Positions 6,301 through 51,849 are shown, counted from the first letter of the stretch. The stretch is 64,000 nt of DNA from a virus (IMGVR_UViG_3300028048_000106:28188-92187), one strand, 5' to 3'. Notes: generated by a model from the letters alone, not told the origin. Numbers and translations are program-made.

Positions 6301-8130
6301 ATGGCACTGAATTGGAATCCTTTTAGAAGACGGACATCTGACTAGACAAGCTAGAACATCTAGAACAACCCTAACTACTAGACATTTGCCTAGGTGAACT
6401 AGGACATTCAAGCAATTGTCAATGCAAAGTCAGTTGTGTCAACTGCAGCAAAAGACTAGAACAGAAGATTTGCAAACCCTTCTTGGCAGACATTCTTTGA
6501 TGGTGAGATACTTGCACTTCCTCTAGCAACAAACAAGTCTGAGCGGATTGACTAGTATAGACGCATCTCAAAGTACAACATCTGTGATTGGTGCTTTGAT
6601 GAGATTGCAGATGACTTCATACATGAAGATGAGAATGGTGACATAGTGAAGCTGTCTGTCCCTGACAGACTGTCAACAATGCAGAAAGACATTCTGCAGA
6701 ATGAGTTCAACAAGTTCATGAACTTGTTCAAGATAAAAGAAGACGGCTACAACTTGATAAAGCGCTTCTTGACTGAAGGAGAGCTTGCGTGGGAGAATGT
6801 CATCAGTCCAGCCCACCCAGAGATGGGCATAATTGGAGTGAAGTTCTTGCCGGCTGAGTACTATGAGACATTGATTGACACATCAACAGCTCGACCTGTT
6901 GGCATTGTCTTTGATGTTGGGTCATTTGCTGATGAGACACGGCAGATGTACAGGAACTCTTTTCAAGGAGCAGCATCTATATTCAATGCGGTGTATCCAA
7001 CACAGTACAAGTTCACTTTCTCAAAAGACACATGCATACCACTGCTGTACAGCCAGATAACATACATAAACTCAGGTGAGTACTCACATGACTTCTTGAT
7101 AACTTATCCATTGATTGAGAAGGCAAAGCAAGCATACTACAAGCTAGCATTGCTTGAAGATGCTGCTGTGACTCTACGTGTGACTCGTGCTCCTGAAAGA
7201 CTGCTGTTCAATGTGTCTACTGGAAGACTTGACTAGAATAGAGCAGATGAGTATGTCAGACGGTTTGCAAACAGCTTGCACTCAAAGAAAGTTGCTGCAA
7301 ATGGTGGGCAAGACATTGTCAGCACATATTCACCAATCACAATGTTGAAGTCATATATCTTTGGCAAGTCATCTGACTCAGAAGGGACAACTGTAGAGTC
7401 TGTTGGCTCATCAGCTGACTATGACTAGCTTGCTGACATTGAGTACTTCTTGAGAGCATTCTTGAAGATGTTCAAGGTGCCATTCTCTCGCTACAAGACA
7501 CCAGAGAACACAATTGAGAAGAATGATGCTATACCATATGAAGAGTACTCATTCAGCCGTATGATAATGCGCTTCTAGAGAAGATTTGCAGAAGGCTTCA
7601 AACGCGGATTCATAACACACTTGAAGCTTCGTGGACTTTGGGACAAGAAAGACTATGGACTAAAAGACTCTGACCTGCAAGTCAACTTCACTGCACCTGT
7701 CCTCTATGACTTGTATGAGAAGTAGAAGTTGACAGAGGCAAAGATGGCAATCTACAAAGCTTTCACTGACAATGATGAGATGTCTAAGTCACTGTGCATG
7801 AAGAAGTACTTAGGCTGGTCAGATGAAGAGATAAAAGAGAACTACATGTCATTGATACTTGACAAGCAGTGGACTGCTGTTGCTGACATGATGAGCGAGC
7901 GCATATCAGATGAGAACCCACCCGTTGACATAGAGTCTCCTATGAAGTTGAAGAATGACGTTGACAAGCTAGAGAAGAGCATAGGAGGCTAGGACAATGC
8001 CAATAGCGAAGAGCCATCTAGTGGAGAAGCAGAAGGTGGAGAAGAGGCAGAGTCAAGTGAAGAGCCATCTAGTGAAGAGAAAGAAGAGCCAGCAAAAGAG
8101 GCTGAGACTCCAACGTTTGGCCTTGGCTAA
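6301..8130 (+). CDS. Portal protein (T4 gp20-like), TAG-recoded
   Basis: One frame with only TAG interruptions; YRRI...FDEIADD, LLEDAAVTLRVTRAPERLLFNVSTGRL, DIEYF...FKVPFSR motifs. Confidence 0.9.
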
Positions 8131-8169
8131 GAGCCTTAAGTGGCATTCTGCCAAGTAAATAGAAATGCA

Positions 8170-8406
8170 ATGACGCCTTATCAATATCAATACTATAGTT
8201 TTCTTGAAAATGCACGCAAACGTGCATTATATCAACATAGTCTTGCAATGAATGCATTGACAGCAATACGTAGAGCTGTAAATGCTGGAATAGATCCACG
8301 GACAGATCCAGATCTACATGGCTATTGGATATTGATAAGTGAAGATGACAGACAGCGGTTTATATCTGAGCTTGATGGCACTGTGTTTGTCACTGAAGGT
8401 GACTGA
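8170..8406 (+). CDS. Hypothetical protein
   Basis: ORF 8 nt downstream of a GTAAATA motif. Confidence 0.55.
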   Translation: MTPYQYQYYSFLENARKRALYQHSLAMNALTAIRRAVNAGIDPRTDPDLHGYWILISEDDRQRFISELDGTVFVTEGD

Positions 8407-8420
8407 AGACTAGCAGAGCA

Positions 8421-9086
8421 TCATTCACTTTTGCTTTGGCTGTCTAGTATCTTAGTTATCTAGTCTACACTCCAGTTTTTCTTTGATGTCTCAATTGCAT
8501 CAGCATCTATGCTTTTAGGGCCTTCTTTTGCCAACATCAACTCTTTCTACAAGTCAGCTTTGTACCGTAGAAGCTCTTTCTTCTACTCTTTGTCAAATAT
8601 TGCAAACTTGACTTTGTCTACAAAGTTCTACTTGTCACGATAGACTCCTATGAACTCAGCTATGCTTATGTGGATGCTCTCTACAAGCTTGCTGTATGCC
8701 TAGACTGCTTCAGAGTCTATCAAGGGTGTTGCCAGAATGCTTGAATGGACGTGCCTTATGACATCTTTAGACAAGTCAATGATATCTTCTAGCTCCTTTA
8801 GAGAATGGTCCATTGACACCATCTGCACAGACAGCTCTGACATAGGCATAGACATGCACGTTGGCATAGCTGATATCTCAGCCATCTTGTCATGCATGTC
8901 TTGCTCTATAGATGACAACTAGTCAATTGCTGACAATGCAGCATCTTTAGTTGGCACTGCGCTACTGAGAGAAAGACTGTCTAGAAAAGTGTCAATGTCT
9001 TGTCCACCAGTTATCCCAAACACAGCATCAAGCTTCTCTTGCTGTGTTGCAATGTGTGGAGTGCTCTATCTACTGTTGTCAGTCAT
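8421..9086 (-). CDS. Helical hypothetical protein, possibly small terminase (gp16-like), TAG-recoded
   Basis: Open from ATG 9086 to TGA 8421 with only TAGs; coiled-coil pattern; gp16 similarity is weak. Confidence 0.45.
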
Positions 9087-9717
9087 TCTATGATCCACTC
9101 ATTGAGTCATCAGAGCCAATGTACTGCCTAATGTAGTTGTTCAAGCTTGACTTAGGGTCAATCCCTTGATATGTCTCAAGCTCTGACAACAGCTGCTTCA
9201 TGACTTCTTTTCTTATGTTCTACTGCTTGTAGTGCTTTGTTATAGTTGATATGTATGCATTCCAAGCACATGTACTGAAGTATGCAAATGGATTGTTGAA
9301 CTCAAAGTTGTAGTTCTTGAGGCCTTTTATTGCTTTCACAAAGAAGAACCCCTTTGCATCTTCTTTCAACTCTTTAGAGTAGTTTCTGAACTCACTTCGA
9401 TTGAGCATCTTGTCAGCAATTGCCATAAGCATCCTGCCAAGCTCTTCTGACAGGATGCGGTCTTCTACTTTCTTAGCTGAGTCACGCCACTTGACTAACT
9501 CTGCATGTAGTTCAGCTGATGTGCAGTAGAACCTCTCTTTGTTCTTTGGCTCAAGCTCTCCTGCTGCAGCTTTCTTAGCTTGTCTTTCTCTCTATATCTT
9601 CAGCTTTATGGCTTGTTTTTCAGCAAGTGTCAACTTCTTTGGCTGTTCTTTTTTCTACTTCTACTATTGCTTCTAAGTCTTCTTTGTAGACACATCAATA
9701 GTCTACTGCTTCATCAT
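9079..9717 (-). CDS. Late-transcription sigma factor (T4 gp55-like), TAG-recoded
   Basis: SEELGRMLMAIADKMLNRSEFRNY...NNPFAYFSTCAWNAY; 5 TAG in first 21 codons. Confidence 0.85.
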
Positions 9718-9815
9718 TGCACACATATATTGTCTTTCTTTGATTTAAAGGTATAAAGGTATATACTTATATAGAGATATTGTACACCGCTTTTGGCTAT
9801 CTCTAGATTTTTTTT

Positions 9816-9949: not shown

Positions 9950-11209
9950 ATGGTAGACATCCGCAATGAGATAGACAAGATTGTCTTAGTAGAGTCATTT
10001 TCATCAAAGAAGCCACACATTTTCAATGATGACAAGACAACATTCAAGCAGTTGAAAGACTTGTTCACTAGCATATTTGACTCACGAGTCATAAAGTTCT
10101 CAAGAAAAGTCCCTAAACTAGACGCATATTTGACTGTCAAAGATGGCAATTGGTTTGTGTCATCTTACCTTAGGCCAGAGCAGCAGTACCCTATTGGCAA
10201 TGCCTCAAAGCTGCATGAGTCTGATGCTGACTCAAAAGATGCTGTCTAGAAGACATTTGACAGCATTGTTGAGTCACTTCAGTCTATTGACCCTGTGCTA
10301 TTGAACAGGTTCTTTGCAAATGGCAGCAACCGCCTGCACATACTGCTAGTGTGCCCACCAGATGGATGCTCTAAGCTGTATGGTGGAAAGTGCTTCACAG
10401 AGTATGGTGGCATTGACTGCTTCAATGATGGCAAATGCGTAGGTGATGACAAGAAGTCTAGCTTTGAGCTGTATAAGATATTGAAAGCTTGCCCAACACT
10501 GAAGTGCGAGTTTGCTGAGTTGACACCTGAACAGCTCACTGCAATAAAGTGCTGCAAAGATGAGAGAGCCATTCTAAAGCAGCTAGTTGACTAGTTGGCA
10601 AGACTAGTTGACGGCATTGGCTGGGGATGCTCAATACGTGACTATGTGCAAGACCGCTACTCTCGCTATCTAGTCAACAAAGCGCTTGAGCACAATCTTG
10701 ATGTGTCAAAGAAAGGAGCACTTGTTGATGAGCTTACATCTCGTCTAAGTGGGACATCAACTCTTAGGCCAACTAAGTCTGACCTCGCAACATTTGCAAA
10801 ACGTGAAGGGATTGATGTCAAGTCAGACGACTACAAGGCGTTTCTTGATGACATTGAGCAGAATGCGGCAATGACAAACAAAGACATCATGTCTCCAATT
10901 GAGAATGCAATATACTTTGCAGTGTCAAACATTGTCCAAGCACTGCTAAGCTACATCAGTCTTGACCCTAACCCAAAGGCAAAGAAGCTTGCACAGTAGA
11001 CAGCAAGAGACTTGTTTGCTGCATGTGACTCTATTGAGAAGTGCTCTTTTGACAGCAGCAAGCTAGATGGAATGAAGAAAGCTCTTGCAAAGCTGTGCTC
11101 TTACAAAGAGTTTGCTCCAAAAGAAGTCAGGTTTGTCAACAATGGCATTCCATACACTGTGGCATGCGAATGTGAGAAGCTTGATGCAATGTGCAAGACA
11201 ATTGCTTGA
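9950..11209 (+). CDS. Hypothetical late protein, TAG-recoded
   Basis: Four track ORFs in one frame joined by TAGs at 10247, 10592, 10997; GTAAATA upstream. Confidence 0.7.
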
Positions 11210-11220
11210 AAGGGCGCACG

Positions 11221-12234
11221 ATGACAACTGACAGCATACTAGAGTGCATAAGCATCGACATAGATGATAGCATGCTGAAAGATGCAAAGATTGCAGCATA
11301 CATGGCAAACTAGTCAATGCCAACATCATCTGGAAAAGTGAAGCCATACTCTCCTAAGTCATTTCCTGACAAAGCGTGCATTGTCTAGTTCAACTATGGT
11401 GCTGTGCCAGTAACAATATATCTTGACACTAAGGCCAAAGCCTGGAACTCAAGCTTCATCCAAGATGGCCATATTGCAAAACTAGCACCTGAACAGCTAG
11501 ACGGGTTCTTCTCTACAAAGTTCTATGCAAAGCTTGTTGATGCATTGGCAAGAAAATGGCCAACAAAAGACCCACAGTATGCTGACTTGTACAAAGCAGT
11601 GCTAGACTGCGCTTGCACAACCGAGATAAGAGAAGATGAGGCTCTATGTGCTGGAAGAATTGATGAAGTTGACTAGCCTGGCAAGAAGAAAGAGCTTGCA
11701 AACAAAGATGTTGACAACGACAACAAGAGAGACTATGCTGGGTCTGGACGAAAGATTGTCCACTTCTCAGACATGGGAGTGAGCAGCAAGTCAGGTGAGT
11801 ACTTCTGCTGGCCTCGCAAAGGCAAAGAGTTCAAGTGGAACTCTTGGAAAGATTGGCACAAGCTGAAGCCATTCGCAAAGATGTACTTCAAGCACAATGG
11901 CCGAAAGTACATGATATCTCTTTCACTGTTTGATGAGCAGTTTGACCACCGCGGGTTCCGTGGAGCAGATGTTGACTGGACACCGCCATTTGCATGGACA
12001 ACACCTGAAGAGTGTGATGAGATCATGCAGTTGTCTATTGTCAAGAAGTTCTTGAAGCAATGCATAAAGCGTGTGAAGCCATACATAGAGATGGACCCTG
12101 AAGAAGTGCTTAAGAAGATAGACAAGCCTGAACGAGTTGACATAAAAGAGATAGAGAAGACATAGCGCGTGATAAAGCATGTACTGAAGTCTGTGTTCAA
12201 AGAACAGTAGGCAGATGACTACAAGTATGATTGA
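11221..12234 (+). CDS. Hypothetical protein, TAG-recoded
   Basis: Track ORFs 11404 and 11773 are co-frame; only TAG stops until TGA 12232. Confidence 0.65.
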
Positions 12235-12258
12235 CATAATTCAACTAAGGACAAAGAC

Positions 12259-13260
12259 ATGAAGAACTATAGAAGAGGAAGCATGCACAACTTTACTGTG
12301 CGGTACAAGACAAGACGCAATGAGTCTACTATTGTGTGGGAAGGCTAGGCGTAGACTATAGAGCAAGCATTGCTCACTTGCCAAAGTACAGAAGATGATG
12401 GCATTGCACTTGTTGAATACATTGACATTGATGGTGAAGAGCTAAGCAGCGCTGCGATTGACAAGATAAACAAAGAGCATTTTGCTGAAGTTGATGAGTG
12501 CGATGGTGGAGGAGCTGCGGCCGGTGGAGATGCTGGTGGAGCTAGTGCTGGAGGAGATGCTGGAGCAGTTGCTGTTGATGCTGGAGACACTGCTGGTGAG
12601 ATGGCAGGGACTTCTACTGCTGATGTCATTGGCGGCACATTTGACCCTAAAAAGGGAGTCATGGGTGTTGGCAACTTCATGGTTCCATCTAAAGTAAAAG
12701 TCCCACTCCATAGATGGGAAGTGTGCAATGGTGGCTCAAAGCGCAAGAAAGACAAGAAAGGCAAAGACAAGAAGTATGCCTATGAGAAAGGCATGAAAGT
12801 TGTTGTTGACATGCTTGAGAAAGATGGCAATGGTGGAAGTCCAACATCTGGCAAGAAGAAGATCTTCTCAAGACTGAAGCGCATATCTAAAGGCGTGAAG
12901 TCTATGGATGACGTGAAAGCTGTTGAAGCTAAGATAGAGAAAGAGAAGTCACAGATTGAAAGCCGATTCTCAAAGTCAAGCTACTCTTAGATCAAGTAGA
13001 TGTTCACCGACTTCTGTGCATTCATCAAAGACATCTGCACTGGAAAATACAAGGCATCTTGGTTTGCTGTGACAATGGTCACGGTTGGCTTGATATACAT
13101 CATCTCTCCAATTGACTTGATTCCAGATGTTGTTCCTGTTGTTGGCGTCATAGATGATGCATTTGTCTTGAAGCTTATATATGATACTGTAAAAGACGAG
13201 ATTGGCAATTGGAAATCATAGAAGACTGCGAATGGCAGCAATAGAGCTTCAATGCATTGA
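12259..13260 (+). CDS. Gly/Ala-rich protein with C-terminal YkvA/DUF1232 domain, TAG-recoded
   Basis: 12370 and 13000 ORFs co-frame via TAGs; YIISPIDLIPDVVPVVGVIDD signature. Confidence 0.7.
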
Positions 13261-13309: not shown

Positions 13310-14239
13310 ATGCAGAAAGAAGTTGTAGTCCTTGGTGGCAATGGGTTTCTTGGGTCAAATCTCTGTGAAGCTCTTTGGAAGAAAGGAATAAAGCCAATTG
13401 TCCTTGACAAGTCTCTTGGATGTGATCTTGCCACAGATATTGGACAAAATGCATTCAATGATGTTTTGTTGAATCTTTGCAATATTGACGACATTGATGT
13501 TGTCATGATGGCGGCTCGTCTTGGTGCAGAGCTTTTTGAGAATGACCCAATTCCACCGTATCTTGAAAACAAAGCTGTCAATGAGAAGTGCATAGAGACA
13601 ATTCTTAATTTTTCAAATCCAACGTCTAAATTCCACATATCATTCTATTCTACTTCTGAAGTGTATGGCAATGTTGACCCATCTAATGTGCCAAAAACGC
13701 TGCTGCCAACAATTGACCCTCTATATGGCCGTTCACTGTATGCGCAAGAGAAGCTTGCCACTGAGACAGTCTTGAACTGCCTTAGAGACACAAAGAAGAT
13801 AGCATCTCTTAGAGTATTTAGGCCATTCAATGTCTCTGGAAAATGGCAGAGACGTGGAGTAGTGCATGGAATGGTCAAGTCAGCAGTCTACTGCAACAAG
13901 ATAAGGTATGTGTCTGGCCAGACAAGAGAGATAACATTTGTGCAAGATGCGACAAAGATGGCTTTAGATGCAGTTCTTAGCAGAGAAGAAGGGACATTTG
14001 ACTTGACATCGAAGAACCACATCAGTCTAAAAGACCTTGCATGGAGCATAAAAGATGTCTTAGCTATGTCGCATCCATTGAAATATGCTTCTGTCACTGT
14101 AGAAGAAGACCCTCCAATTGACTCATACATAAAGACACGAGGGACAGTCAATGCCATCTCAAGCATTGGTGGAATAAAAGCATTTGCCAAGAGACTGGCA
14201 GAAAGCCACATCATTGAAGACATAGTGAACACTATGTGA
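13310..14239 (+). CDS. NAD-dependent epimerase/dehydratase (extended SDR)
   Basis: GGNGFLG, STSEVYG, YAQEK (YxxxK), RPFNV. Confidence 0.85.
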   Translation: MQKEVVVLGGNGFLGSNLCEALWKKGIKPIVLDKSLGCDLATDIGQNAFNDVLLNLCNIDDIDVVMMAARLGAELFENDPIPPYLENKAVNEKCIETILNFSNPTSKFHISFYSTSEVYGNVDPSNVPKTLLPTIDPLYGRSLYAQEKLATETVLNCLRDTKKIASLRVFRPFNVSGKWQRRGVVHGMVKSAVYCNKIRYVSGQTREITFVQDATKMALDAVLSREEGTFDLTSKNHISLKDLAWSIKDVLAMSHPLKYASVTVEEDPPIDSYIKTRGTVNAISSIGGIKAFAKRLAESHIIEDIVNTM

Positions 14240-14255: not shown

Positions 14256-14876
14256 ATGGCAGATGGACAGTCAATAATTGAGCCGAACACAGCCGAATTT
14301 CGGTCATCATTGTTTGAAGAGCACAGCTAGCAAGACATTGACAGCTAGCATGTAGCATAGACATTCAACATGGATGTCAACTATGCAAACTAGAACAAGT
14401 GGTTTGCATACTGCCCTCTTGAAGATGTCTTAGGCAAAAGATACAAGAACTTGAACTTGCACTTGACTAAGTTCAACATTCCACAATTGATTCAAGGAAC
14501 AATGGAGGCCAGTTTTAAGGGCTATGCCAAAGAGATGCCAACAAAGATATTGAACCCTTCTACAAAAGAGATAACTCTTGAGTACATTGTTGACTCAAAT
14601 TGGGAGAACTACCGCGCTCTCTATGCATTCATGTCTAACATAAATGGAACATTAAACCCTGTGTCAACTGATGAGAAGACTGGAATCCTTCCATCTGAGT
14701 ACATGCCAGTCAGAATATATCTTCTTGGCCCTTACAAGAAGAAGATAATACAGTTCTTGTTTGAGAACTGCTGGATAAAGGTGTTCAACGAGATATCACT
14801 TGATGTAAACTCACCAGCAGAAGTCACTCACTCATTTACACTCTCCTGGGACAGATATTGTATTGAGGACATCTGA
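14256..14876 (+). CDS. Tail terminator / tail-tube-fold protein (T4 gp3/gp19-like), TAG-recoded
   Basis: ITLEYIVDSNWENYRALYAFM...FLFENCW; N-terminal extension through TAGs; GTAAATA upstream. Confidence 0.7.
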
Positions 14877-14979
14877 CAAAGACTGCTATCTGCAGTAGTT
14901 GCTAGATTTAAAGACTAAGCATAAATAGCACAAAATCCATCTTTGGCTATTGCTAGCTTTAACTTGTACAATATATGAT

Positions 14980-16284
14980 ATGATAATTATAGACTAGCAA
15001 TAGCTTCATTGCAATGTGTATTTTGTGCAAAATCATGATGCTGTTGAGCAGTTGATTGACTTACTCAACAAGCACAAGACTAAATATGGCGCAATGCTAC
15101 AAGCGAAAGGACGAAAGTCACAGCCAAACTGCAAATCAAAGCACAGGATGCTGTATGAGTAGATAGTCCAAATGCTGCCAAATGCTGCAAATGGCATAAG
15201 TATTGCTGAAAAGTGCTATTGGATCATATATGGCTTGATAGATTTTCCAAAATGCGAAATATGTGGAAAAAGCCTTTCATCAAAGCAGTTTGTTAGCCTA
15301 CGCCATGGATATCGAAGATGCTGCTCAATGAAGTGCAGAGGGAAAGACCCACAGTATAGGCAGCATTTGTCAAATGTATATTGCCGTATGGTTGAACGTG
15401 ATCCACTAGCAGTAAGCAAGAGGTCATTGAAGTCATTGTAGACTAGAAAAGACAAGTATGGTGCATACTGCCCAACGTCATCATATGACAAGATGAGAGC
15501 AACTCGAAAGCAGAAGCAAGAAGATGACCCAAAGTACATTAGCAGAATTGTTGAGAAAGCGCATAGCACTAATGTTAAGAATGGACATCCTCCAACGTGG
15601 AACAACTCAGACAAAATGCGTAAGACACGGCTAGATCATAATGGTGGCCAATGGGAGACAGACTAGACACTAAGCCATAGAAAGCACAATGCTATGCTGA
15701 AGTATGGCGTTGATGATGCAAACAAGTCAGATGCTGTCAAACTACGGAAAGCACAAGCATTTGAGTCTCGGTATGGAGCTGGTGTCACGTGTGTGTTCTA
15801 GACAGATGAATTCAAACGCCATATGGTAGAGATATCTAGTCAACGAAAGGAAAAAGAGCACGCAACAAAGAAGCAGAATGGCACGTTTAACACATCTAAG
15901 CCAGAAGAAGAGTGCTACCACATGCTGCATTTTGCCTATCCACACATTATTCGGCAATACCGCTCAGAAGCATATCCATTTGCATGTGACTTCTATGACC
16001 CTGACTCGCATACATATTTTGAGTACAATGGCTCATGGACTCATGGCGGGCATTTCTTTGACAAGACCAATGCTGCTGACATAGAACAGGCTGTCAAATG
16101 GAAAAGCAAAGGCACAAAGTTCTATATGAATGCTCTCTACAATTGGACAGTCAGAGATGTCAAGAAAAGAGAGACTGCAGAGAAGAATAGCCTGAACTAT
16201 GTCGTGTTTTGGTGTCTTGATGAAGTGAGAAGACATGTCTTAGATGTTTTGAATGGCATATGGTTGTGCATGGTGGCGAAGTAA
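14980..16284 (+). CDS. Free-standing homing-endonuclease-like protein (Zn ribbon, KYG repeats, C-terminal PD-(D/E)XK/Vsr-like nuclease), TAG-recoded
   Basis: PKCEICGK, CSMKC, KYGV repeats, YPFACDFY...FEYNGSWTHG. Confidence 0.7.
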
Positions 16285-16328
16285 ATAAAGTATGTTGTAC
16301 AACATATAGAAACTTAAGGAAAAAAACA

Positions 16329-17489
16329 ATGGAAATACTTACTGAATTTGATGGTCTTCAAGAAGCTTTGAAGAAAGTCAAGATGGATGAGTCTGTCATG
16401 CCATACGTCAATGGAAGACTAGTAGACGATTCAGCTTGGAACAAGACATAGAAGATCCTCAACTGCCCTGAGATGATCTCTGCCCACAAGTACCTCTACA
16501 ATCTTGACATGGACTAGTTGACAGAAGAAGAGATTGACAAGATCAACTAGCTCTACAAGGTTGGCTGTGATCGAGGATTCATCATTGATGACCTTACAGA
16601 TTGGAATGCTCCAGATGCTCCAGCACAGGCCACCGATGCTCCAGAGAAGACAGAAGAGACGCCTAAGACAGAAGAGCCTATTGACCAGAAGCCAGTCAGT
16701 GGAAGTCTATTCAAGGCAAAAGTCCCATGTTGGACTATCATATACTCTGCTACATCAAAAGATGGCGACATCAAGACTGGAGAAGCATATTCAAATGCAA
16801 TTTCAGCTTCAGCAGCAAAAGCAGATGTGAATGCTAAGCTTTCTCGTATTGGCTACTCAAACATCTCAATTCTTGCAATTGAGGCAACTGATGCTTGTGA
16901 TGCTTCAGCAGCATAGACATATGTCAAAGAAGTTGAGGATGTCGCAGAAGATGACATGCTTGATGGACGTCCACACAACAACCATGTCTCTGAAGCAGAT
17001 GAAGAAGATGAGTCTAAAGATGATGCTGAGTCTGATGAGTCTGATGAAGAAGAGTCAAATGAAGATGCTGAAGAAAAAGAAGATGATGCATCTTCAGATG
17101 ACAGTTCTGATTCAAATGATGAATCAACAGATGATGCTGAAGAAGAGGAAGACACCGAAGAAGATTCTGAAGAAGATACTGAAGAAGAAGAGGAAGACGC
17201 TGAAGAAGATTCTAAGGAAGAAGATTCAAAAGATTCAGAAGATGGCGAAAAAGAGCTTGATGCTAATGAAAAGGCAGAACTCAAAGACAAGTACCGTAAA
17301 ACTTTCAAGAATGTCTTGTCTAAGTGCAAGTTTGAAAGCTCTTTCAATGACCTCACGCTTGAACAGAAAGTCAAGTTCTTCACCGAACTCTCAAAAGCAT
17401 GGAACAAGAATGAGCCAACAGAGTTCATGACAGACAAAGAAGTTGAACAGCTCAACAATGTTGTCGTAAAAGAAGGCAGCGATGACTGA
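16329..17489 (+). CDS. Highly acidic late protein (possible prohead core/scaffold), TAG-recoded
   Basis: Frame open via TAGs; long D/E tract about 17000-17250; AAGGA SD and GTAAATA upstream. Confidence 0.6.
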
Positions 17490-23571: not shown

Positions 23572-24531
23572 TCATCTTTCCATCCATTTTGCAATGGCTG
23601 TCAGCAAGCCAAAGAAGCCACTCTCTTTGTCAATGACAGTGTTCAACTGGAACAGCAGGTCTGTCATCTTTAGTATTCCATCTAAGTCAACAACAATGCC
23701 AGTGTCAACAACATGCTTGTACAATGCACTTCCAAACTCAACATAGTCACTTATCTTGTCTTTCTCAGACAGATAGAACTTCCTGACTTCAAGCATGCTT
23801 CTAGTTGTCTTGAGCTTGTCAACAATGGCATCTAGCAGCTCATTCTTCTCAGACTCAGCAACTTTGTTGAGATTGACAACAAGCTCTCCTGTTGTGCAGC
23901 AGAACTGCAGGTAGTTGATGATTCTTCTGACATCTGGATAGTACTGGAAAGCTTCTTCAATGAAAGCTTTCACTGAGTCTCTTGTGTACTTGATGCCTTC
24001 ACTGTCAAGGATCTTCTTGACATGGATGAGAAGGTCTTTCTTGTCAAACTTGAGAGGGATGACTGGGCAACGAGACAGAAGAGGGGCAATTATCTTCTGC
24101 AAAAAGTTCCCAGTTATCAAGAACCGCGTGTCATCTTGTGCAGCCTCAATCAATGTCCTAAGCGCTTGCTGGAAGTTGTTGCCTCCTCCTGCACTCGCTG
24201 AGTCTACTTCATCAAGTATGACAACTTTTATCTTGCCTTCCATTGACAATGCATTGCAGAAGTCTTGGATCTTTGTCCTAAGGACATCAACGGTGCCATC
24301 TGTTGCACAAGGCACAAACAGCACTTGTGCATCAAGCTCATTGCACAGTATCTTTGCAAGTGTTGTCTTTCCTGACCCTGCTACTCCAATGAGGCTTAAG
24401 TTCTGAAGTGACTTCTTGTCAATCATTGACTTGAAGTACTTCTTTATGTCTTCACCCAAGACATACTCACTAAGGCACTTAGGGCGGTACTTGTCTACCC
24501 AAAGCTCTGTCAATGTGCTATTGTCTTCCAT
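23572..24531 (-). CDS. Clamp loader AAA+ subunit (T4 gp44/RFC-like)
   Basis: LWVDKYRP, GVAGSGKTT, ILDEVD, SRC, PDVRR. Confidence 0.92.
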   Translation of the reverse strand: MEDNSTLTELWVDKYRPKCLSEYVLGEDIKKYFKSMIDKKSLQNLSLIGVAGSGKTTLAKILCNELDAQVLFVPCATDGTVDVLRTKIQDFCNALSMEGKIKVVILDEVDSASAGGGNNFQQALRTLIEAAQDDTRFLITGNFLQKIIAPLLSRCPVIPLKFDKKDLLIHVKKILDSEGIKYTRDSVKAFIEEAFQYYPDVRRIINYLQFCCTTGELVVNLNKVAESEKNELLDAIVDKLKTTRSMLEVRKFYLSEKDKISDYVEFGSALYKHVVDTGIVVDLDGILKMTDLLFQLNTVIDKESGFFGLLTAIAKWMER

Positions 24532-24553
24532 GTATACAACCTACTTGTCTAGA

Positions 24554-32568: not shown

Positions 32569-32590
32569 ATCTATATGTATGAAAACAAAA

Positions 32591-32619: not shown

Positions 32620-32639
32620 ACATTTTACAACTTTAGGCC

Positions 32640-40875: not shown

Positions 40876-41412
40876 TCAAATTCTCTTCAACACGCATGAA
40901 AGTGACCTTCCTTCTAGAGATGGCTTTCCATCAAGTCTAGCAATTCCATCAAAGTTCACTAGAATGCTCCGCATGACATCTTTTGCATATTCAAGCTTGT
41001 CCATCTCGCGCTTTGCCAAGAATATTGTCACTTTCACTGTGTCGCCATCTTCTAGAAACTGCTTTATGTGGGCAATCTTTATGTTTCGATCATTGTCATC
41101 AATGCGAATGGTGAACTTTATCTCTTTAAGTTCAGAGCGACTTGCCCGTAGCTTCTTCATCTGCTCTTTTTGGCGCTTCTTCTCATCATACTTGAACTTG
41201 GCATAGTCAATTATCTTGCATATAGATCCAGGAAACACAGATGGATTGAATGCTATCTGCACAAGGTTCTTACCTTCTGACTTTGCTCTTGCAATAGCAT
41301 CATCTTTTGAAAGTATTGTTGTTTGGCCATCTTGGCCAACTAGTCTGACTTTGCTAGACTTTATAGCATAGTCCATTGGTAGATTTGTCTTGTCATTCTT
41401 GTCTTTTGCCAT
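40876..41412 (-). CDS. infC: Translation initiation factor IF-3 (divergent)
   Basis: VRLVG, NLVQIA, CKIIDYAKFKY, KEIKF..RID, FLEDGDTVKV, EGR; AAGGA SD before ATG 41412. Confidence 0.88.
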   Translation of the reverse strand: MAKDKNDKTNLPMDYAIKSSKVRLVGQDGQTTILSKDDAIARAKSEGKNLVQIAFNPSVFPGSICKIIDYAKFKYDEKKRQKEQMKKLRASRSELKEIKFTIRIDDNDRNIKIAHIKQFLEDGDTVKVTIFLAKREMDKLEYAKDVMRSILVNFDGIARLDGKPSLEGRSLSCVLKRI

Positions 41413-41438
41413 GCTTTCCTTCTTTGCAGTTACACTAG

Positions 41439-42859
41439 GTGAACTAGTCACACCTTGAAAGGTGTGATCTTCAAGTGTTCTTCCTTGCATCTAGTGCAAT
41501 CACTTGATTTTCTTGCTTCAATGTCGGTAGTTTCACGAACACAATTTGTATCATGTTCGCCAGAGCTTCCAACTCCACAAGCGTTTATTCCCGACGTCCC
41601 ATCGGTATTCTTCATAATGTCTCTCAAAGCAAAGTTCCTTATGTTGATAGCTGCATTCAAGTCTCTATCTATTATTATACCACATTCTGGGCATTCATAG
41701 ACTCGGACATCTAATGGCATCTTCTGTCTATGTCCACAGCAATGGCATATTTGGCTTGATGCTTCAAACCTTCCAATCTTCTTGAAGATCTTGCCTTCTC
41801 TCATTGCTTTGTAGTTCAACATAGACGTAAACATGTGCCACCCTAAGTCTGAGACCTTCCTGCCCCAAAGCTTCTTCATCCCTTGCAGACTCAAGTCTTC
41901 AATGCAGAAACAGTCAAATTGGCTTTCTTTGACTAGTCTTGTTGAAGTCTTGTGCAAGAAGTCTTTTCTTTGGTCAGCAATCTTTTGATGAATTTTTGCA
42001 ACTTTCCTTCTTTGCTTCTCTTTGTTCTTGCTTCCTTTTGTCTTCTTGCTTAGTTTTCTTTGTTCTTGTGCTAGCTTGTCTAGCATCTTTTTGAAATATT
42101 GTGGATTGTCAATCTATCTTCCATCTGACAATGTCAAGAAGTGCTTTAAGCCAAAATCAATTCCTAGAGCATTCTTCTTGTTGATGTTGATGTCATCGAC
42201 TAATGGTCTAAAGTCATCCTTTGCATGCACAATGAACGACACATAGTATTGTCCAGAAGAGTTTCTCGAGATTGTTGCTGTTCCAATCTTGCCTTTCTTG
42301 ACTTGTCTTGAGATCTTGACTTTGATTCCATTCTTTCTTGAGAACTTTGGCATCTTGATCTTTGACTCTTTGAAGTCAATCTGGAAATGTTGAGGGATCT
42401 CAAATGAGTCTTTGTCAAACTTCTTTGATTTGAATCTCGGGAAATTTGCTCTACCAGCAAAGAAGTTGTTGAATGCTCGGTCAAGATGGCCAACCGCACA
42501 TATGAGACTCTGTGAGTTGACTTCATAAAGCCAAGGATTTGCTTCTTTGAGTTTTACAGTCTCACCAGAACAACCCAAGCCAATTGAGTTTAAGTACTTC
42601 TATTGAGATGCATATCTTTCTTGATTGAGATGAAGAGCCCAATTGTACATGAAACGAACACAGCCAAAATGCTTAGAAAGAAGAACTTTCTACTCACTAG
42701 TTGGATATATTCGAAATCTATATGTCTCAATCATTTGGTAATAGAGATATTGTACGTTTTACAGTTTTATTTACTCAAGACAAATCATAAACTTCACATG
42801 TATTTCATAGAAAATTCTAGGCAATTCGTATCACACCCTAAAGGATTTGATGTTTCTTG
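41439..42859 (-). mobile_element. tnpB: IS200/IS605-family TnpB-only element #3 (CDS 41448-42734, TAG-recoded)
   Basis: YRFRIYPTSE[Q], FGCVRFMYN, GIDFG, IEDL, SSQICHCCG, CPECG, DRDLNAAINI; hairpin ends. Confidence 0.9.
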
Positions 42860-42938
42860 CTTAGGTACCCTTTAAAATATACATGTTGGCTTGAAAGTAG
42901 CAACGTTTTCAACTAATTTCGATGTAAATAATGACAGC

Positions 42939-43709
42939 ATGAGTGGTAGATCTAATGACATAAAGAAAGAGATCAAGATATCTTAGCTGCCAAGCATAAA
43001 GAACATAAGCAGCGATGATCTTTTGATAATATCAGACTATGATGGTGGCAAGTGCTTGTCTAAGAACATGACAATGCAGTAGCTATAGAACTATGTCAGT
43101 TCTAAAACATTGTCTAGCAATGCATTTAAGACTAAGGTAGAGAGCATTGCAAAGGTACAGCATCTTTTTGACACACGAGAGAATTGGGAGAAAGAGCCAT
43201 TGCGCAGTCTAGTTCTAGAGAAAGGCTAGATTGCATTTGTCAATGACACAGGCCTAGAAGAAGTCATGATGAAAGCTGGCAATGGCATAGACCCATTCTA
43301 CCAGCTTCCATATGTCAGATTTCCAGTTAATGATCCAGCAGAGATAATGGTGAACACAAGAGCTGGTTGGGCAGAATAGCCTGGATTTTAGCCAGCTAAA
43401 GGCTAGATTGTCATTTGGTCTGACAAAGCTTAGATGCACAAGTATGTGCTTGAAGGCGATGAGCTAGTAGACGATGGTTTAATAGATGTCCCTGGCATAA
43501 AGATTGGAGATGGCAATGCATACAATCTTGACTTGCCATATGTTGGAGATGACATTGAGTAGAAGATTGACTAGCACATAAAAGACGTGCAAGCGCATGT
43601 CTCAGAGCAAGATAGGAAGTCTTGGAACCACAAAATCACAATAGGTAATCTTGATACGCCATCTGATGACGGTGTAGAAGGTGAAACACTAATCATAAAA
43701 AGAAACTAA
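42939..43709 (+). CDS. Tail-fibre-associated protein with two Mtd-N-like repeats, TAG-recoded
   Basis: W...VLEKG[Q]I...KAGNG..F..LPY and W..[Q]P...KG[Q]I...KIGDG...LPY; invisible in ORF track. Confidence 0.65.
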
Positions 43710-43729
43710 AAACAAAGGAAAATAAAATT

Positions 43730-45466
43730 ATGGCAAATCCATTCATTAGCCAAATTACCCTTCCTAGTGGAACAACGTATGATATAAAAGACACGCAGGC
43801 GCGTTCTGATATATCTGCTCTTAGCTCTGCTATTGAAGGTGGCGTACATTACATCGGTAAGACCACTACATAGCTTTCAGGTGATGGCGACACCACATCA
43901 TCGGTAGTCATTAACGGTGAGACAGTCGAAGCTAAGCAAGGCGACATGGTCAGTCTTTCTGCACAAGGAAAGCAAGATCTTGAGTTCTTGTTCAATGGCT
44001 CTGCATGGTATGAGCTTGGTTCTACTGGTTCATTGAAGGCTCTCGCATTCAAGGATTCTGCATCTGGTTCATATACTCCTGGTGGTTCAGTCAGTCAGCC
44101 AACATTTGCTGGTAGTGAAATGACTGCTTCAGGCAGCTATACGCCAGCAGGCACACTTGATGCTCCTGCGTTCACTGGTACAGCTGGAAGTGTAAGCGTC
44201 ACTGGTACTGCAGCTGGTACAGTCAGTCAGCCAGAATTCAGCAATGGTGCGGCATCAGTTTCAGCAGAATATACTCCAGCTGGTAGCGTTACGCTTGGTG
44301 GTCAAACGACACAAGATGTCACAATATCAATAGATGAATCTGCGTCTGGAAACTATCAACCAGCTGGTGATGTGACTTAGCCAGACTTTACTAATGGCAC
44401 AATTACAAATGGCAGCGCTTCCTATACAAAGGTGACAGGTGTCACAACCAAGACTACTAAGAGCGTAGGCGTCAGCAAAGGCTCCGGCACGGCAAACTAT
44501 ACGCCAACAGGCAATGTAACAGCTTCATTCTCTGGCGCGGATATGACGTCTACTGGTGAATTTACGCCTACTGGTACTGTTGCCGTTGGAACGACTACAG
44601 CCACAGTGACAGTCGCTGGAACCTAGCCAGCAGAGTCTTCCGAAGTGACATATACACCAGATGGTACTGTATCCGCTCCAACGATCAGTGTCGCCACAGC
44701 AGGTACCACTGATACGGTCAATAGCGCCACAGCCAAGACCGTAGTTACAGACATGAGTGTGGCAGAACCTAGCGCAGGCGAGACGACAGGCGAGCTCGCA
44801 TACTATGCCGTGTCTGGCGAGACGCTTACGTTCAAGAAGTTCATCGAGACTACTGGTAATTCTGTTGATACAACAGCAAAAATTGTTAAGACTGGTGATG
44901 CTACATATACTGCAACTGCTCCGACATTTACTGGTACCGGTGCAAAGCTCGTTACAGATAACATTACTATTCCATCTGGTTCTGGTACGTTCACTGGCAC
45001 CAAGGGCAACGTCAGCGTCACAGGTACGACGACGGGGTCTATCACTGGCCTAGGCTTCACTGGCACAGGTGTAGATCTCGAAGTCCTCGTCCCAGATACA
45101 TATGAAGTCGCGACAGAGACTGGCTCAGCCACAGTTACAGGCAGTGTTACTGGCACGGTCACCAAGCCAAACTTCACTGGTACAAAGGTTGCTATTACTG
45201 CAACTGGTGTCAGTGTTCCAACAAGTGCAACATTTGGTGGCACAAAGACTACAATCACAGCTACTGGTACAGCTACTGGTACAGTCAGTCAGCCAACATT
45301 CACCGGTGGCACTGTTACATCTACTGGAACATTCACACCAGAAGGTACAGTTGCAGCTCCAGTGTTTACTGGCACAGACGCAACAATTACTGTCAAAGGT
45401 ACACCAGCAGGTACTGTCAGCAAACCAAACTTCACTGGTACAGAAGCAACAATCACTGTTAGCTGA
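43730..45466 (+). CDS. Thr/Gly-rich repetitive fibre protein, TAG-recoded
   Basis: Repeated (Y/F)TPxGTVSxPxFTG motifs; AAAGGA SD; three TAG. Confidence 0.75.
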
Positions 45467-45490
45467 TGATAATGAAAGGAGTAAGTGCAC

Positions 45491-46894
45491 ATGGCTACTG
45501 GTAGCATAAGCTAGATAAAGTTGCCTAATGGCAGCACTTACGACCTAAAGGATGCCGGTCTACGCAACTAGACCGGCATCCTTTCCAGCGATGGCGTCAA
45601 TGTCGCAGGCGTAAGTGAAAGCTATTTTCGACCAACTATAAAGGTATTTGACGCAGATCCTGTTCGCATCGACTTAAGTGTAGTCAGGCTTTCAGCAGAT
45701 GACTATGATGAGCTAGTTGCAAATGATGAAGCATTGTCTAATGTCATCTATGTTGTTGATGACGCCAAGATAAATGCATATGATGAGCAGATAAAGAATC
45801 TAGCCGCAGGCGTCGACGACACAGATGCAGTCAATATGGCATAGTTCAACGCAGTCTCTGCGCGTATTGACGACACATACACAAAAGCAGAGACTGACTA
45901 GAAGATTGCAAGTGCACAATACTTCAAGAAGTATGTTGTGCAGACTCTGCCACCAGTCGCAGAAGCTGATGAGCGCGGAATCTACTTAGTGCCTAGTGAT
46001 GATCAATAGACTTCAAATACATATGATGAGTATGTCATCGTAGGAGAAGGATCTTCAAGAGAGTGGGAGAAGATTGGATCTAAGAGCATTGACCTCTCTG
46101 GATACAAGACAAAGCAGACTGCAAAGACAAGTCCAACTGCAAGTGGCACCACAACAGCATTCATTGACACAATATCTCAAGATGAGAATGGTGTCATAAC
46201 TGCTACCAAGAAGAATATTTAGTCAGCAACAACTTAGTAGGCAGGCATCGTCCAGCTGAACAACACGTTGACAAGCACTGCTACTAATCAAGCAGCTACT
46301 GCGAATGTAGTCAAGTTGACTAATGACAAGTTTGCTGACTATTCATTGATATCACATGTGCATGACCAGTACTTGACAGCAGTCCCTTCTGACTACAAGA
46401 CATATAGCGAGACATAGCAGACGCTCAGTGGTGATGGATATGCAACCCAAGACTAGCTAAATGAGAAGTCAACTGTGTCAGTAGACAATGTCAAGGCAGA
46501 TGTCAATTTGCAGCACATATCACAAAAAGACTATGAGCAGCTAGTAGTTGATGATGCTACGCTGAGCAATGCGCTGTATGTTGTCTCGGCTGACTATGTT
46601 GAGTCTTATGGCCAGCAGATAAAGAATGTTGCTCCTGGATCTGACTTGTCAGATGCAGTCAATGTAGAGCAGCTTCTCAGCGCGGTGGGCAATGTGCAAG
46701 TTCCAACTGACTTGAGCTCTTTCAACAACTCTCCTGGATATCTTGTGTCAAGTGACATAAGTGACTACTATTAGAAATCCGAGACAAGCAGTGCAATACA
46801 AATAGCAGTGGCTATTGACAGCATTAGAAATATGATATCTAGTGCTATGACATCAACATATGAATATGCGCAGCATGAGATTGGAGAACAGTAA
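45491..46894 (+). CDS. Tail fibre protein with two YadA-stalk-like motifs, TAG-recoded
   Basis: IKNLAAGVDDTDAVNMA[TAG]F and IKNVAPGSDLSDAVNVEQL; ATT..AGIVQL fibre repeat; N-terminus paralogous to 43730 gene. Confidence 0.75.
45547..45584 (+). terminator. 16-bp perfect hairpin inside 5' end of CDS (possible attenuator)
   Basis: AAAGGATGCCGGTCTA-CGCAAC-TAGACCGGCATCCTTT. Confidence 0.55.
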
Positions 46895-47094: not shown

Positions 47095-49472
47095 AGAACT
47101 ATCCATCCCTGTCAGCGCTGTTTAGAGATGTCGGTCTGAGCATCGTGAAGAAGCACAAGGCAACAGGCTTGAGCTCGATTTGCCCGCTTGAGTTTGCAGA
47201 GAAGATAGACACGATCGACTAGGCGGAAGATGCAGACAAGGTCGCACTTGGAGAAATCAAAGACCTTTGGTTTTCTATTATAGGTGGTGTCTTGACGATC
47301 TGCTGGAGAGATCCGCTTGATGTAGTGCACGAAGGCTCTGTCATAACTCACTTTGGAGCTACAACGCTCAGAGCCAAGCTAGATGGCTATCCAGTTGGTC
47401 CTGAAGATGGCATATAGATTTACTCTGGAATGACAAGAGACAAGCATGCATCTACTCCACTTGTGGTTGACTTGGACTCACTAGGCTTGATCCAAGATGA
47501 TGGAGAAGGCGGAACTAAGACAATCTACTTCAAGTTCTTCTCTAAGACTTCTGGCAGTGCTTTGCATGATGGAATATGGAACACAGACACTTTGATTGGA
47601 GATGCAAATCAGTTCTCAAGTGAGTCATATGACTGGAGCGCAATCTACTCAGCTTTGAAAGACTACCCTACTGCAAAAGCATTGAGTGTCCTTCCTGAAG
47701 CTGGTTCAAAGGTGTTTGTCAACTACATGATAAGAGACTACTACCTCTCTTCTAGCATAAATGTGGCAGCTGAGACCCGTCAAGATGTTGTCAACAATGC
47801 TGACAAGCTTAGTGCTGTCTCCATTCCATGGACAATTCTCGGCTACAACGCAAATGTCCCACAATATGTTGGATACAAACGGCTTGATGACCTCACTTAG
47901 ACATACAAGTACATGTATGTGCAGTCAATTGATGACTCAGTGTCTTCATGCACGCTATTCAAGACTGATGGAACTTAGGAGACCATTGAGCTTGATGTTG
48001 GAAATAAGCAGTTCAGGAACATTGTTGCTGGATGCTAGACATACACTGAAGATGAGTGGGACTACTAGATCAACAAGAAGTCATATACAAAGAACAACTA
48101 TGTTGTTGATGCCGTGTCAGAGTCTACGTTTGGCTACAACAACGAAGGAACTGGAACATAGAATGTCTATCATGTTCCAGTCAAGATCAGCGCTGATGGG
48201 TATGAATGGGACTTCTGCGGTTACACGATGACAATCTAGCCACAGAATGCTTTGATTTCGATAAACAGGACTAGCAACACTGCAACTGCAACGTACACTA
48301 ACATTTAGTTTGATGCAACAGAGATCAGATACGCTGACATTTTTGAATAGTTCCCAGATGACACTTCTGGAGGCGAGACGTACGTGAGGCTAGAAGCAGA
48401 TGGACTCCATGAGATAGACTGGTCATTGTCAGCTTCGTTGAAAGTCAATGAGCTGCCATATGACGTATACAAAATAGAAGATGGCAGACTTGAGCTTCAG
48501 ACGTCGTATTTCTAGAAGTACTGCGGCTATGCGCTGAAGAGTATCAACGCAGAGACAGGCGCGAATGTATATGAGAACCTAGTCGAGATAGAAGACTTCG
48601 AGATTGGCAAGGCGTACTACACGACGTGCAACGCCAAAGACTACGACAAGACTAACAGAAACCTGAGCGTAGTAGCTGACGTCGTCAGATATGATGGCCA
48701 GTTATACGTCTGCAAAGCCAATGTGGCTATTGGCCAATCCAAAACGTTCGAGCAACTTTCGGCATCGAACTTCAGGGCTTTGTCATCGGCAGCCGAGCTG
48801 TCTGTCAAGGCTTTGTACGACGCCGGCATGTACTTCGTCTCCAGTTAGAAGATGCCATTGACGATGTTTGGCAAGGAGGTTGTTGAGCAGAACATGTTGA
48901 ACTGCTACTTTTACGGGCGCAATGTCTATGAGCAGTCATTCTACAAGCAGTATGCCAACAACATAAATGGATCAAGACGTTTCTCTGATTCACCTTACAA
49001 GCCACAGCACAAGCACGATGTTGTGTCTACTGCAGGTTTGGCAAATGCAAATAGTCTGATGTTGAAGCTGTACAAAGAGCAATAGATGATTAGGCATATA
49101 GTTCCTGCTGTGAACAGGACAGTTGTGTCTCCTATTAATGGACCATTTCGGCCAGACACATACACTAAAAACAATAGATAGACATGGGAGACTTCGATTG
49201 ACTTGTTCTGGCCATTAGCGAACTATGAGGTGTTCGGCTCTGGAGCAGATGCCAGCAGCACGTTCTCGAAGGTTTATCCAGACAATGCATCAAGAATAAA
49301 GACAAATCTTGCTGCAGATGGATCTTCATCTGCTAGTTCCGTGAAATGGTGGCTGCGTGATCCTACTACTGGCAACTCTTCCAATGAGTACCTTGTCTAC
49401 ACTTCTGGAGCATCCAACACCTACCTTGCCAACTACTCTTATGGCTTTGTCCCAGCTTGCATAATCGGATAA
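47091..49472 (+). CDS. DGR target: putative receptor-binding protein with C-terminal C-type-lectin-fold (DUF6273-like) domain, TAG-recoded
   Basis: 793 codons open with only TAG; FWPLANYEVFG...WWLR...GFVPAC; carries the VR. Confidence 0.85.
49331..49460 (+). repeat. DGR variable repeat (VR)
   Basis: 130 nt ungapped match to 50397-50526; 14 of 15 mismatches are at TR adenines. Confidence 0.95.
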
Positions 49473-49888: not shown

Positions 49889-49918
49889 AAAAGTGAAAAC
49901 GTAGAGAAGTTGAATACT

Positions 49919-50368
49919 ATGGCGGTCCCTGCATACAAGAGAAATGAGAACAAGCTAGATGTCTTGAACATCGCAATGGCGGTATTTGAGATGGCGGTCT
50001 CTCTTGTCAAGAATGACTAGCTGCTGTCAAAGAAGAACTACAAGATAGTGGCAGAGCCAATGATGGCAAACATACGCAATCTGATGTACAAGATATCGCT
50101 AGCAAACAACATATTCGTTAAGACCGAAGAGACTAAGAAAAAGAGGATGATGCTATAGCTTAGCGCAAGAGAATATGCCATACAGCTTTAGGTAGATGTG
50201 CAGTTGATAATGAAGCTTTCAGCTGACTAGAAGCAGTTGGTCATCTGCAACAAGCTGATAGAAAAGATAGATGAGCTGAAGACAAAGATTGCTGGGTGGA
50301 TCAAATATACGGCAAAACAGGAGATTTTCAATGCAAGAGAAGAAGCTGGAGAGCAAAAACAAGACTAA
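49919..50368 (+). CDS. avd: Avd-like DGR accessory protein, TAG-recoded
   Basis: MAVPAYKRNENKL start, ANNI...R, I.GW end, basic four-helix pattern, directly upstream of TR. Confidence 0.8.
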
Positions 50369-50396
50369 TGTGCAGATTTGGCAGCATCTCAATAAA

Positions 50397-50526
50397 TGCT
50401 AGTTCCGTGAATTGGTGGCTGCGTAATCCTAATACTGGCAACTCTAACAATGAGTACAATGTCAACACTTCTGGAGCATCCAACAACAACAATGCCAACA
50501 ACTCTAATGGCTTTGTCCCAGATTGC
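50397..50526 (+). ncRNA. DGR template repeat (TR)
   Basis: AAC/AAT-rich (15 Asn codons) copy of VR between avd and RT. Confidence 0.93.
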
Positions 50527-50718
50527 TTTGTTTGCTGCCAAGAGATGCATGGCAATGGTGAAAGTATGCAATGCAGAAATCCTAAGCCATAGTGTGGCAG
50601 CAATATGCAAGGGAGATGCCGCTCAAGGCATTCGCCAAACATGCTAAATGATGCTAGATATGCTCTAAGCTGCAGTCAGATGCACTGGCAAGTCAAGCTA
50701 GACACATTTGCATAGCAT

Positions 50719-51849
50719 ATGTCTGCTAATAGAAGTCCAGCATTTCCAGTTTCTTCTCTTCATCCTTTTTTGTCTAAGCCATCTAAGTTTGTTTAGATGT
50801 TGACTCCAGAAATATTAGCAGATGCCGCTAGGAAGTGCGCACGTGGAGTTAGGTGGAAGACATCAGTGACTACATGGATGTTCAACTTAGTCTAGAACTG
50901 CAATAGACTTTGTAGAAGCATCAAGACAGGCACATACAAGCTCTCTAAGTATATTGTGTTCAAGACATTTGACAAGAAACCACGCATTATACACAGCACT
51001 AGGTTTTCAGACAGAGTGGTCTAGATGGCTATGTGTGATAATGGACTTCTTGAAGACCTTTGCAGACCATTGATATATGAGAATGGAGCATGCTTAGAAG
51101 GAAAGGGCTTCACATTTACATTCAACTTAGTCTCTAATCATCTGAGGAAATTCTATTTGCATGAAGGCCAGCATACAAATGCCGGTTGGTATGTCAAAGC
51201 TGATGTCAAGAAGTTCTTTGACAGCACTCCTCACAAGATTTTGAAGAATTGTGTTGCGAAGACTTTTAAAGATTCTTGGATGATTTAGTAGGTGGATGAC
51301 ATCATTGATTCGTTCAACATCAACGATACTAATGAAAAAACAGATGGATTTGGAACAAGAGGTGTTGGCCTTGGCAGCTAGATAAGCTAGCTGCTCTAGA
51401 TTCTAGTCCTCAACGGCTTAGATCATACGATGAAGCAGAAGTTCAAAGCCAAGCACTACATAAGGTACATGGATGACATCTTAGTCTTGGTTGAGTCTAA
51501 AGACAAAGCTAGCGCAGCTTTATGTGAGATCAGGCATCAGCTGGAGCAGATAGGCTTGGAACTGAATGCTAAGTCGAGAATAGGACGAATACAAGATGGA
51601 TTCACATTCTTGAATGTCAACTTCAGGTTGACGTCAACAGGCAAAGTGAAGAAGAAGCTTGGAAAAAAGACTATTAGAAGAGAGCTAAGCCGGTTGAAAA
51701 CTTTAGCACGCAAATTGAAATCTGGGCACCTATAGTACAGAGACTTCTTGCAACATGTCAATAGCTGGTTTGGGTCTAACATATGCAAAATGTCTAGAGG
51801 CTAGGTGAAGTTTTTGAGAAGAGCTATATCAATCTGTCTGCAAAAGTAA
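50719..51849 (+). CDS. DGR reverse transcriptase, TAG-recoded
   Basis: KPRII, DRVV[Q], ACLEGKG, KADVKKFFDS, GVGLGS[Q]IS[Q], RYMDD, FTFLN; start codon uncertain. Confidence 0.92.

Follow-up and report, generated by a model that had tools for sequence, protein, structure and literature searches.

The window analysed here, a 64,000-nt stretch corresponding to bases 28188-92187 of the linear 92,187-bp IMG/VR virus record IMGVR_UViG_3300028048_000106, carries two kinds of genes: one set has in-frame TAG codons, which the comparisons below indicate are read as glutamine (Gln, Q), and the other set has none. We consider it highly probable that this is a code-15 phage (TAG = Gln) with a TAG-dependent late gene set and a TAG-free set, in which the decoder of UAG is encoded elsewhere in the genome and the code switch precedes late transcription. 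CheckV gives the 92-kb record a completeness of about 34%, from which the full genome would measure some 270 kb.

The earlier note on this DNA had claimed that essential genes are open only if TAG is a sense codon. This was found to be the case for the conserved genes encoding the portal, the large terminase subunit (TerL), the neck, tail tube-like and fibre proteins, the diversity-generating retroelement (DGR), two TnpB and a gp55-like late sigma factor (TAG counts in Table 1). The structural regions appear as short frames under code 11, whereas a sense TAG joins them into long ones with matches to known families. The coding density of a greedy gene set over the whole 92-kb record rises accordingly, from 0.78 under code 11 to 0.95 with TAG as sense; reading TGA or TAA as sense gives 0.86 and 0.82, both with more strand switches. 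Neither TAA nor TGA breaks the TAG genes, here or in the portal matches of 19 relatives. The sequences quoted in the earlier note are all present (neck ELNDN-TAG-L, TnpB YPTSE-TAG, reverse transcriptase (RT) GS-TAG-IS-TAG and terminase GRQ-TAG-GKS), and so are the gene overlaps that it quoted, TGATG at 3120-3124 and ATGA at 26139-26142.

The separation of the two sets is sharp. In a codon-usage-scored gene list covering the whole 92-kb record, 39 genes have at least two TAG, with 240 in-frame TAG in total (1.97 per 100 codons), and within the genes that contain it UAG accounts for about 45% of the Gln codons. The TAG-free set comprises 50 genes of at least 100 aa with 0 TAG in 13,037 codons, an outcome with a probability of about 1e-112 at the rate of the TAG genes. 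The sets interleave along the record in about 29 runs, in an order shared with relatives, and so many alternations mean that a chimeric contig is no explanation. GuaC/IMPDH, PARP, the clamp-loader AAA ATPase, RNase H, DnaJ, DnaK, IF3 (from its ATG at 41490) and the minus-strand block at 52.4-63.9 kb contain no TAG, just as the earlier note had stated; the sole TAG in the IF3 frame lies one codon upstream of the ATG. PolB is TAG-free too, and a relative likewise has no TAG in its PolB, GuaC and deoxyribosyltransferase. The span of 6301-51849 originally given for the recoding does contain TAG genes but proved too narrow, as others, two TAG-rich glycosyltransferase genes among them, lie in the 28 kb that precede the window.

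Which amino acid is inserted at TAG was addressed mainly at the codon level. The protein-search collection already translates relatives with TAG as Q, so that Q counts in protein matches are partly circular, and checks free of this circularity were therefore used. Opposite the portal TAG, 19 IMG/VR relatives have CAG 46 times, CAA 26 times, GAG 19 times and TAG 14 times, and the well-conserved columns are nearly all CAA/CAG. The match is free of TAG in eight of these 19 relatives, and free of in-frame TAA and TGA in all of them. Scored with BLOSUM62 over the TAG columns, Q ranked first (1.65 vs 1.10 for glutamate (Glu, E), and 3.04 vs 1.54 in well-aligned columns). The homologue residues facing TAG are not random but follow the profile of the query's own CAA/CAG columns. 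In the portal, the Q/E frequencies are 0.58/0.06 at TAG columns, 0.59/0.08 at Gln columns and 0.03/0.67 at Glu columns, and the 58% Q at TAG columns compares with a Q background of 4.2%; the corresponding TerL values are 0.34/0.28, 0.43/0.17 and 0.05/0.60. The likelihood was best for the Gln profile in both proteins, with mean log-likelihoods for Gln vs Glu of -1.84/-3.77 in the portal and -2.23/-2.61 in TerL.

Comparisons with individual relatives point the same way. Against a close relative (eight gene pairs more than 40% identical, with a ninth pair at 36% added for the control counts), TAG stands opposite 19% of the phage's Gln codons and 3.7% of its Glu codons, the latter being about equal to the ordinary Glu-to-Gln rate of 3.2%. 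In an independent assembly whose portal is 97.3% identical, all 13 portal TAG are kept and three extra TAG occur, each of them CAG in the window; this recurrence disposes of assembly error as the source of the TAGs. Two TAG of the RT align with Q of the Bordetella bRT (8ub7), in the motifs DRLVQ and SQ, TAG15 of TnpB (YPxxxQ motif) falls on a Q of the AI-designed TnpB-like nuclease 9yyg, and T4 gp20 has Q opposite a portal TAG at one site. The pair of fibre repeats singled out earlier also stands, with TAG at codon 120 and CAG at codon 396 of the matching repeat. The terminase example is less telling than had been proposed: the TAG does lie in the Walker A motif, but its column is variable, with Q, S or T in homologues. 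Amino-acid composition did not discriminate (Gln from CAA/CAG is 2.45% in TAG genes vs 2.94%). Taken together, the codon-level comparisons and those free of circularity bear out the assignment in the earlier note and indicate that TAG is read as Gln, not Glu.

The base composition around the sense TAG is strongly skewed across the TAG-containing genes of the 92-kb record. It is followed by A in 53% of cases (34% for CAG and 33% for all codons) and by T in 17% (36% for CAG), and it is preceded by C in 46% (10% for CAG). The TAG share of TAG+CAG codons is 78-88% after C or T and 30% after G. This context bias may reflect competition with release factor RF1 or a mutational bias.

As for termination, the called genes of the 92-kb record stop at TGA (67) or TAA (37), and TAG is never the sole stop. 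Where a gene has a single TAG, this codon mostly precedes what is probably the true start. In only two genes, 2049-3107 and 29927-30181 (-), does a TAG stand 4-6 codons ahead of an in-frame TGA; their ends work under either code, and they are the only candidates for TAG as a stop.

The concentration of recoding in late and structural genes, also proposed in the earlier note, was largely upheld, as annotation and a promoter-like motif mostly agree with it; the use of PARP as an example of an early gene was not. By annotation, the TAG genes belong to virion, packaging, fibre and DGR functions, and the bias toward structural/late genes has exceptions. The 70 nt upstream of a gene contain the motif GTAAATA in 11 of the 39 TAG genes and in 3 of the 56 TAG-free ones (Fisher p=0.003), and 17 of its 21 copies in the 92-kb record lie at most 60 nt upstream of a start codon. 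The spacing between motif and start is 1-60 nt, often 5-10 nt, suggesting very short or absent leaders. We regard GTAAATA as a candidate late promoter motif that resembles the late promoters of T4.

The gp55-like factor is itself among the TAG genes. Six of its eight TAG are in a K/Q-rich N-terminal extension, one is in the core (codon 169) and one near the end; the extension is conserved in relatives, which argues that it is coding. Its orthologue has 7 TAG in the 97%-identical strain and 0-3 in more distant relatives. Scanning for sigma-70 promoters upstream of the window's gp55-like gene gave nothing above chance. This gene and the adjoining unknown gene (8421-9726) form a block that is inverted relative to a close relative, L026 (L026:11880-13164).

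For a code-15 phage one would look for a suppressor tRNA with the anticodon CUA and, as found in some members only, for RF2 or another route that lowers RF1 activity. No tRNA was found in the 92 kb by ARAGORN (default, intron-tolerant or relaxed) or with the Rfam tRNA family, no other Rfam family gave a match, and no RF-1 or PCRF domain and no glutaminyl-tRNA synthetase (tRNA-synt_1c) was detected in this fragment of about 34% of the genome. The tRNA matches from the relaxed ARAGORN run were rejected as false positives inside genes, none of them with the anticodon CUA. Five related fragments of 51-185 kb, with portals 56-70% identical in four and 48% in one, had no tRNA either. The CheckV completeness of these five is 18-69%, and if the tRNAs were gathered in a single cluster, as distant relatives have them, six fragments including the 92-kb record would all lack it with a probability of roughly 6%. 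The distant relatives scanned were three genomes with TerL 35-40% identical, rated 97-100% complete, two of them terminally repeated and 418-434 kb long, the third of 262 kb and classed as a provirus. Both larger genomes have about 30 tRNAs in one 13-kb cluster; in the 262-kb genome they form two groups. The complete 418-kb relative is TAG-recoded (TerL 37% identical, with 8 TAG in TerL) and carries, outside its tRNA cluster, an isolated tRNA with the anticodon CUA, which by analogy may provide a lead to the decoder. That tRNA (L165:612-688 (-), the same as G008:C1:268611-268687) is GC-rich, atypical and unlike the tRNA-Gln genes of the same phage. A host was sought through DnaK: its only close match in reference genomes (74%) is CAVJGK010000129.1, a 4.3-kb contig in a Lachnospiraceae metagenome-assembled genome, which is probably a phage fragment, and the host hint is at most weak.

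A standard-code host combined with a temporal code switch, as the earlier note had suggested, is the best-fitting scenario and agrees with the published model (10.1101/2021.08.26.457843); the timing is taken solely from gene function and the motif. The TAG-free genes (replication, DnaK/DnaJ, IF3, nucleotide metabolism and the 12-kb ORFan block) would be translated by the unmodified host apparatus. A UAG decoder, encoded in the two thirds of the genome that the record lacks, would then permit completion of the TAG-dependent genes, namely those for virion, packaging, fibre, DGR, glycosyltransferases, two TnpB and the gp55-like late sigma factor. Other recoded jumbo phages suggest, by analogy, a Gln-charged tRNA(CUA) as this decoder, perhaps helped by a loss of RF1 activity. 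The code switch would come before late transcription from GTAAATA-type promoters, since the late sigma factor itself needs UAG read-through.

Several observations weigh against this scenario. The decoding agent was not found in the 92-kb fragment, and the DnaK search of reference genomes gave no host signal. The TAG-free genes do without TAG as a terminator as well, although genes translated only ahead of the switch would have no need to. The PARP gene (4967-6268) has no TAG and yet a GTAAATA box 10 nt before its ATG, and its 62%-identical orthologue (L026:8690-9964) has 10 TAG. With a late-type box and such an orthologue, PARP is a poor early marker, and the TAG content of a single gene changes quickly within the clade; in the 97%-identical strain PARP has no TAG. 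An epimerase-like gene is TAG-free inside the structural module, and the TAG-rich glycosyltransferase genes upstream of the window mean that the gene split is not strictly functional.

How far other explanations account for the data differs considerably. That the TAGs are not translated at all, the genes being pseudogenes or the contig mis-assembled, chimeric or error-bearing, has a negligible probability in our view: it draws on nothing beyond the fragmented code-11 frames, and against it the interruptions are TAG only, never TAA or TGA, their positions are kept in independent assemblies from other samples, and the TAG and TAG-free genes alternate in the order shared with relatives. A sense TAG that specifies glutamate or another residue would explain why TerL has TAG columns that are mostly E in homologues (E in 103/120 at column 291 and in 79/120 at column 274) and why GAG is the third commonest codon opposite TAG in relatives. 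This is nonetheless very improbable, as the Gln profile outscores the Glu profile in portal and TerL, Glu codons face TAG as rarely as they face Gln while Gln codons do so far more often, 3/3 strain-level TAG differences are CAG, and the invariant-Q anchors in RT, TnpB and portal fit Gln.

Harder to set aside, if still improbable, is the view that TAG means Gln throughout infection, either because the host reads TAG or because the decoder is injected or made very early, so that TAG-free genes would reflect ancestry and not timing: they would have been acquired recently from standard-code bacteria and be slow to ameliorate. Many TAG-free genes are indeed host-like (DnaK, DnaJ, IF3, GuaC), PARP orthologues range from 0 to 10 TAG between relatives, and the avoidance of TAG as a terminator in TAG-free genes is as this view would have it. 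However, the core T4-like PolB, clamp loader and RNase H and the 12-kb ORFan block are also TAG-free, the relative shares this state for three genes including PolB, and the late-type motif tracks the TAG genes. We also know of no bacterium that reads UAG as Gln. One could further propose, although we think it unlikely, that the code switch is the master timer and operates without a conventional phage tRNA. With eight UAG in the gp55-like gene, late transcription could not start before decoding changes, and the six tRNA-less fragments may leave room for a modified host tRNA-Gln, RF1 inactivation or an undetectable tRNA as the decoder.

Table 1. Features of the 64,000-nt window, with coordinates counted from its first base.
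Feature	Coordinates	Strand	TAG codons	Evidence and remarks
GuaC/IMPDH, deoxyribosyltransferase-phosphoesterase, unknown 598-aa gene, WGR-PARP	534-6268	+	none except TAG end of 2049-3107, with in-frame TGA 4 codons on	
Portal, T4 gp20 type	6301-8130	+	13	PHROG213 1e-73
Unknown protein	8421-9098	-	7	PHROG9704 1e-5; orthologue adjoins gp55-like gene in L026, inverted
gp55-like late sigma factor	9079-9726	-	8	PHROG234 'late sigma transcription factor' 1.3e-18
Three unknown genes (419/347/333 aa), probably virion genes	9950-13260	+	3/5/5	L026 orthologues with TAG; GTAAATA at 9910
Nucleotide-sugar epimerase-like, among TAG genes	13310-14239	+	0	PHROG540 4e-21
Tail tube-like and two unknown genes	14256-17489	+	4 (tail tube-like), 8, 4	PHROG45 2e-10; GTAAATA at 14241
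TerL	19644-21551	+	13	PHROG5989 1e-50, PHROG2 1e-44; GTAAATA at 19609
Clamp-loader AAA ATPase and T4-type RNase H	23572-25507	-	0	Pfam AAA/Rad17, 5_3_exonuc_N/RNaseH_C
TnpB-like	26139-27353	-	3	PHROG506 3e-35; GTAAATA at 27365, 27399
Head-tail adaptor (neck)	29072-29884	-	5	PHROG211 9e-19; GTAAATA at 29899
DnaJ, small open reading frame, DnaK	31058-34604	-	0	Pfam DnaJ; HSP70 4.8e-219
TnpB-like	35412-36704	+	0	
IF3 homologue	40876-41490	-	0 from ATG	Pfam IF3_N, IF3_C
TnpB	41448-42734	-	3	TAG15 in conserved N-terminal YPxxxQ motif; Pfam HTH_OrfB_IS605, OrfB_IS605, TNB
Three genes, the third a YadA-like fibre	42891-46894	+	10/3/11	
DGR target protein, 793 aa	47091-49472	+	14	variable repeat at 49331-49460
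DGR template repeat	50397-50526	+		within 5' part of TAG=Q frame 50296-51849 (12 TAG)
DGR RT core	50797-51849	+	9	PHROG1423 1e-82; alignment to 8ub7
Co-oriented block, about 17 genes, mostly ORFans (HAD, LemA)	52368-63875	-	0	Pfam
GTAAATA boxes upstream of starts	4951, 9910, 14241, 19609, 27365, 27399, 27487, 29899, 30205, 35346, 35397, 42774, 51846			four more upstream of the window

The DGR is complete, the target gene having the variable repeat at its end and the RT the template repeat upstream of it (Table 1). Over an alignment of 130 nt the two repeats differ at 15 positions, 14 of them template adenines. The RT example in the earlier note holds in that GS-TAG-IS-TAG is present, but the DGR template repeat takes up at least the first 77 codons of its frame. 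This long TAG=Q frame thus runs through the repeat, so that the RT starts later and the RT proper has about 9 of the 12 TAG of the frame. Two of the three TnpB-like genes contain TAG, and at least two TnpB are therefore written in the phage's own code; one or two GTAAATA copies precede all three.

Judged by its genes and its relatives, the record is part of a large T4-like jumbo phage from cattle-rumen-type metagenomes (rumen or gut). The T4-type gene set includes the gp20 portal, a gp17-type terminase, T4 RNase H, the clamp-loader ATPase and the gp55-like factor. Membership of the portal in the gp20 family follows from the PHROG213 match, from homologues with PF07230 and from matches to T4 gp20 structures at 2e-25. 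TerL is at most 34% identical to that of cultured phages, mostly T4-like cyanophages (nearest about 33%). The close relatives are cattle-rumen assemblies (STEW sample names) with contigs up to 395 kb, and the order PolB - GuaC - deoxyribosyltransferase - PARP - portal is common to them and the phage. In one of them, a scaffold of 395,716 bp, the identity of the portal to that of the phage is 82%.

These results have practical consequences, as the record and its relatives need TAG=Gln annotation; otherwise about one fifth of the coding sequence is lost and hallmark genes look broken. With them, a lineage of T4-like jumbo phages from the rumen joins the recoded phages. The lineage is also a test case for the code-switch model, with a TAG-dependent late sigma factor, a candidate late motif and strain-level CAG/TAG exchanges.

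The central claim, TAG as Gln with a late-gene bias, is already established knowledge, and the record is a clean added example. Code 15 with such a bias has been described in gut and rumen phages, including Lak, crAss-like and the Jade, Sapphire, Agate, Garnet and Amethyst clades, and for Jade, Sapphire and Agate as well as Lak the recoded modules are spread through large genomes (10.1101/2021.08.26.457843). In crAss-like phages the reading of TAG as Gln was validated by proteomics (PMC9523058). A survey of code-15 jumbo phages found the highest share among rumen phages and used a Portal_GP20 split under code 11 as its worked example (PMC13037316); the gp20-type portal of the present phage is likewise broken under code 11. 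Like these gut and rumen phages, it has in-frame TAG at Gln positions in structural/late genes, TAG-free replication genes, recoded modules scattered over a large genome and relatives of rumen origin. No suppressor tRNA or RF2 was found in the fragment, which is about a third of the genome. Its presumed late control resembles that of T4 in having a gp55-like factor (PHROG234) and an A/T-rich GTAAATA 5-40 nt upstream of many late-type genes, although this motif resembles but differs from the T4 late promoter TATAAATA. In contrast to T4 gp55, the mRNA of the phage factor itself contains eight TAG, so that synthesis of the factor would depend on the code switch.

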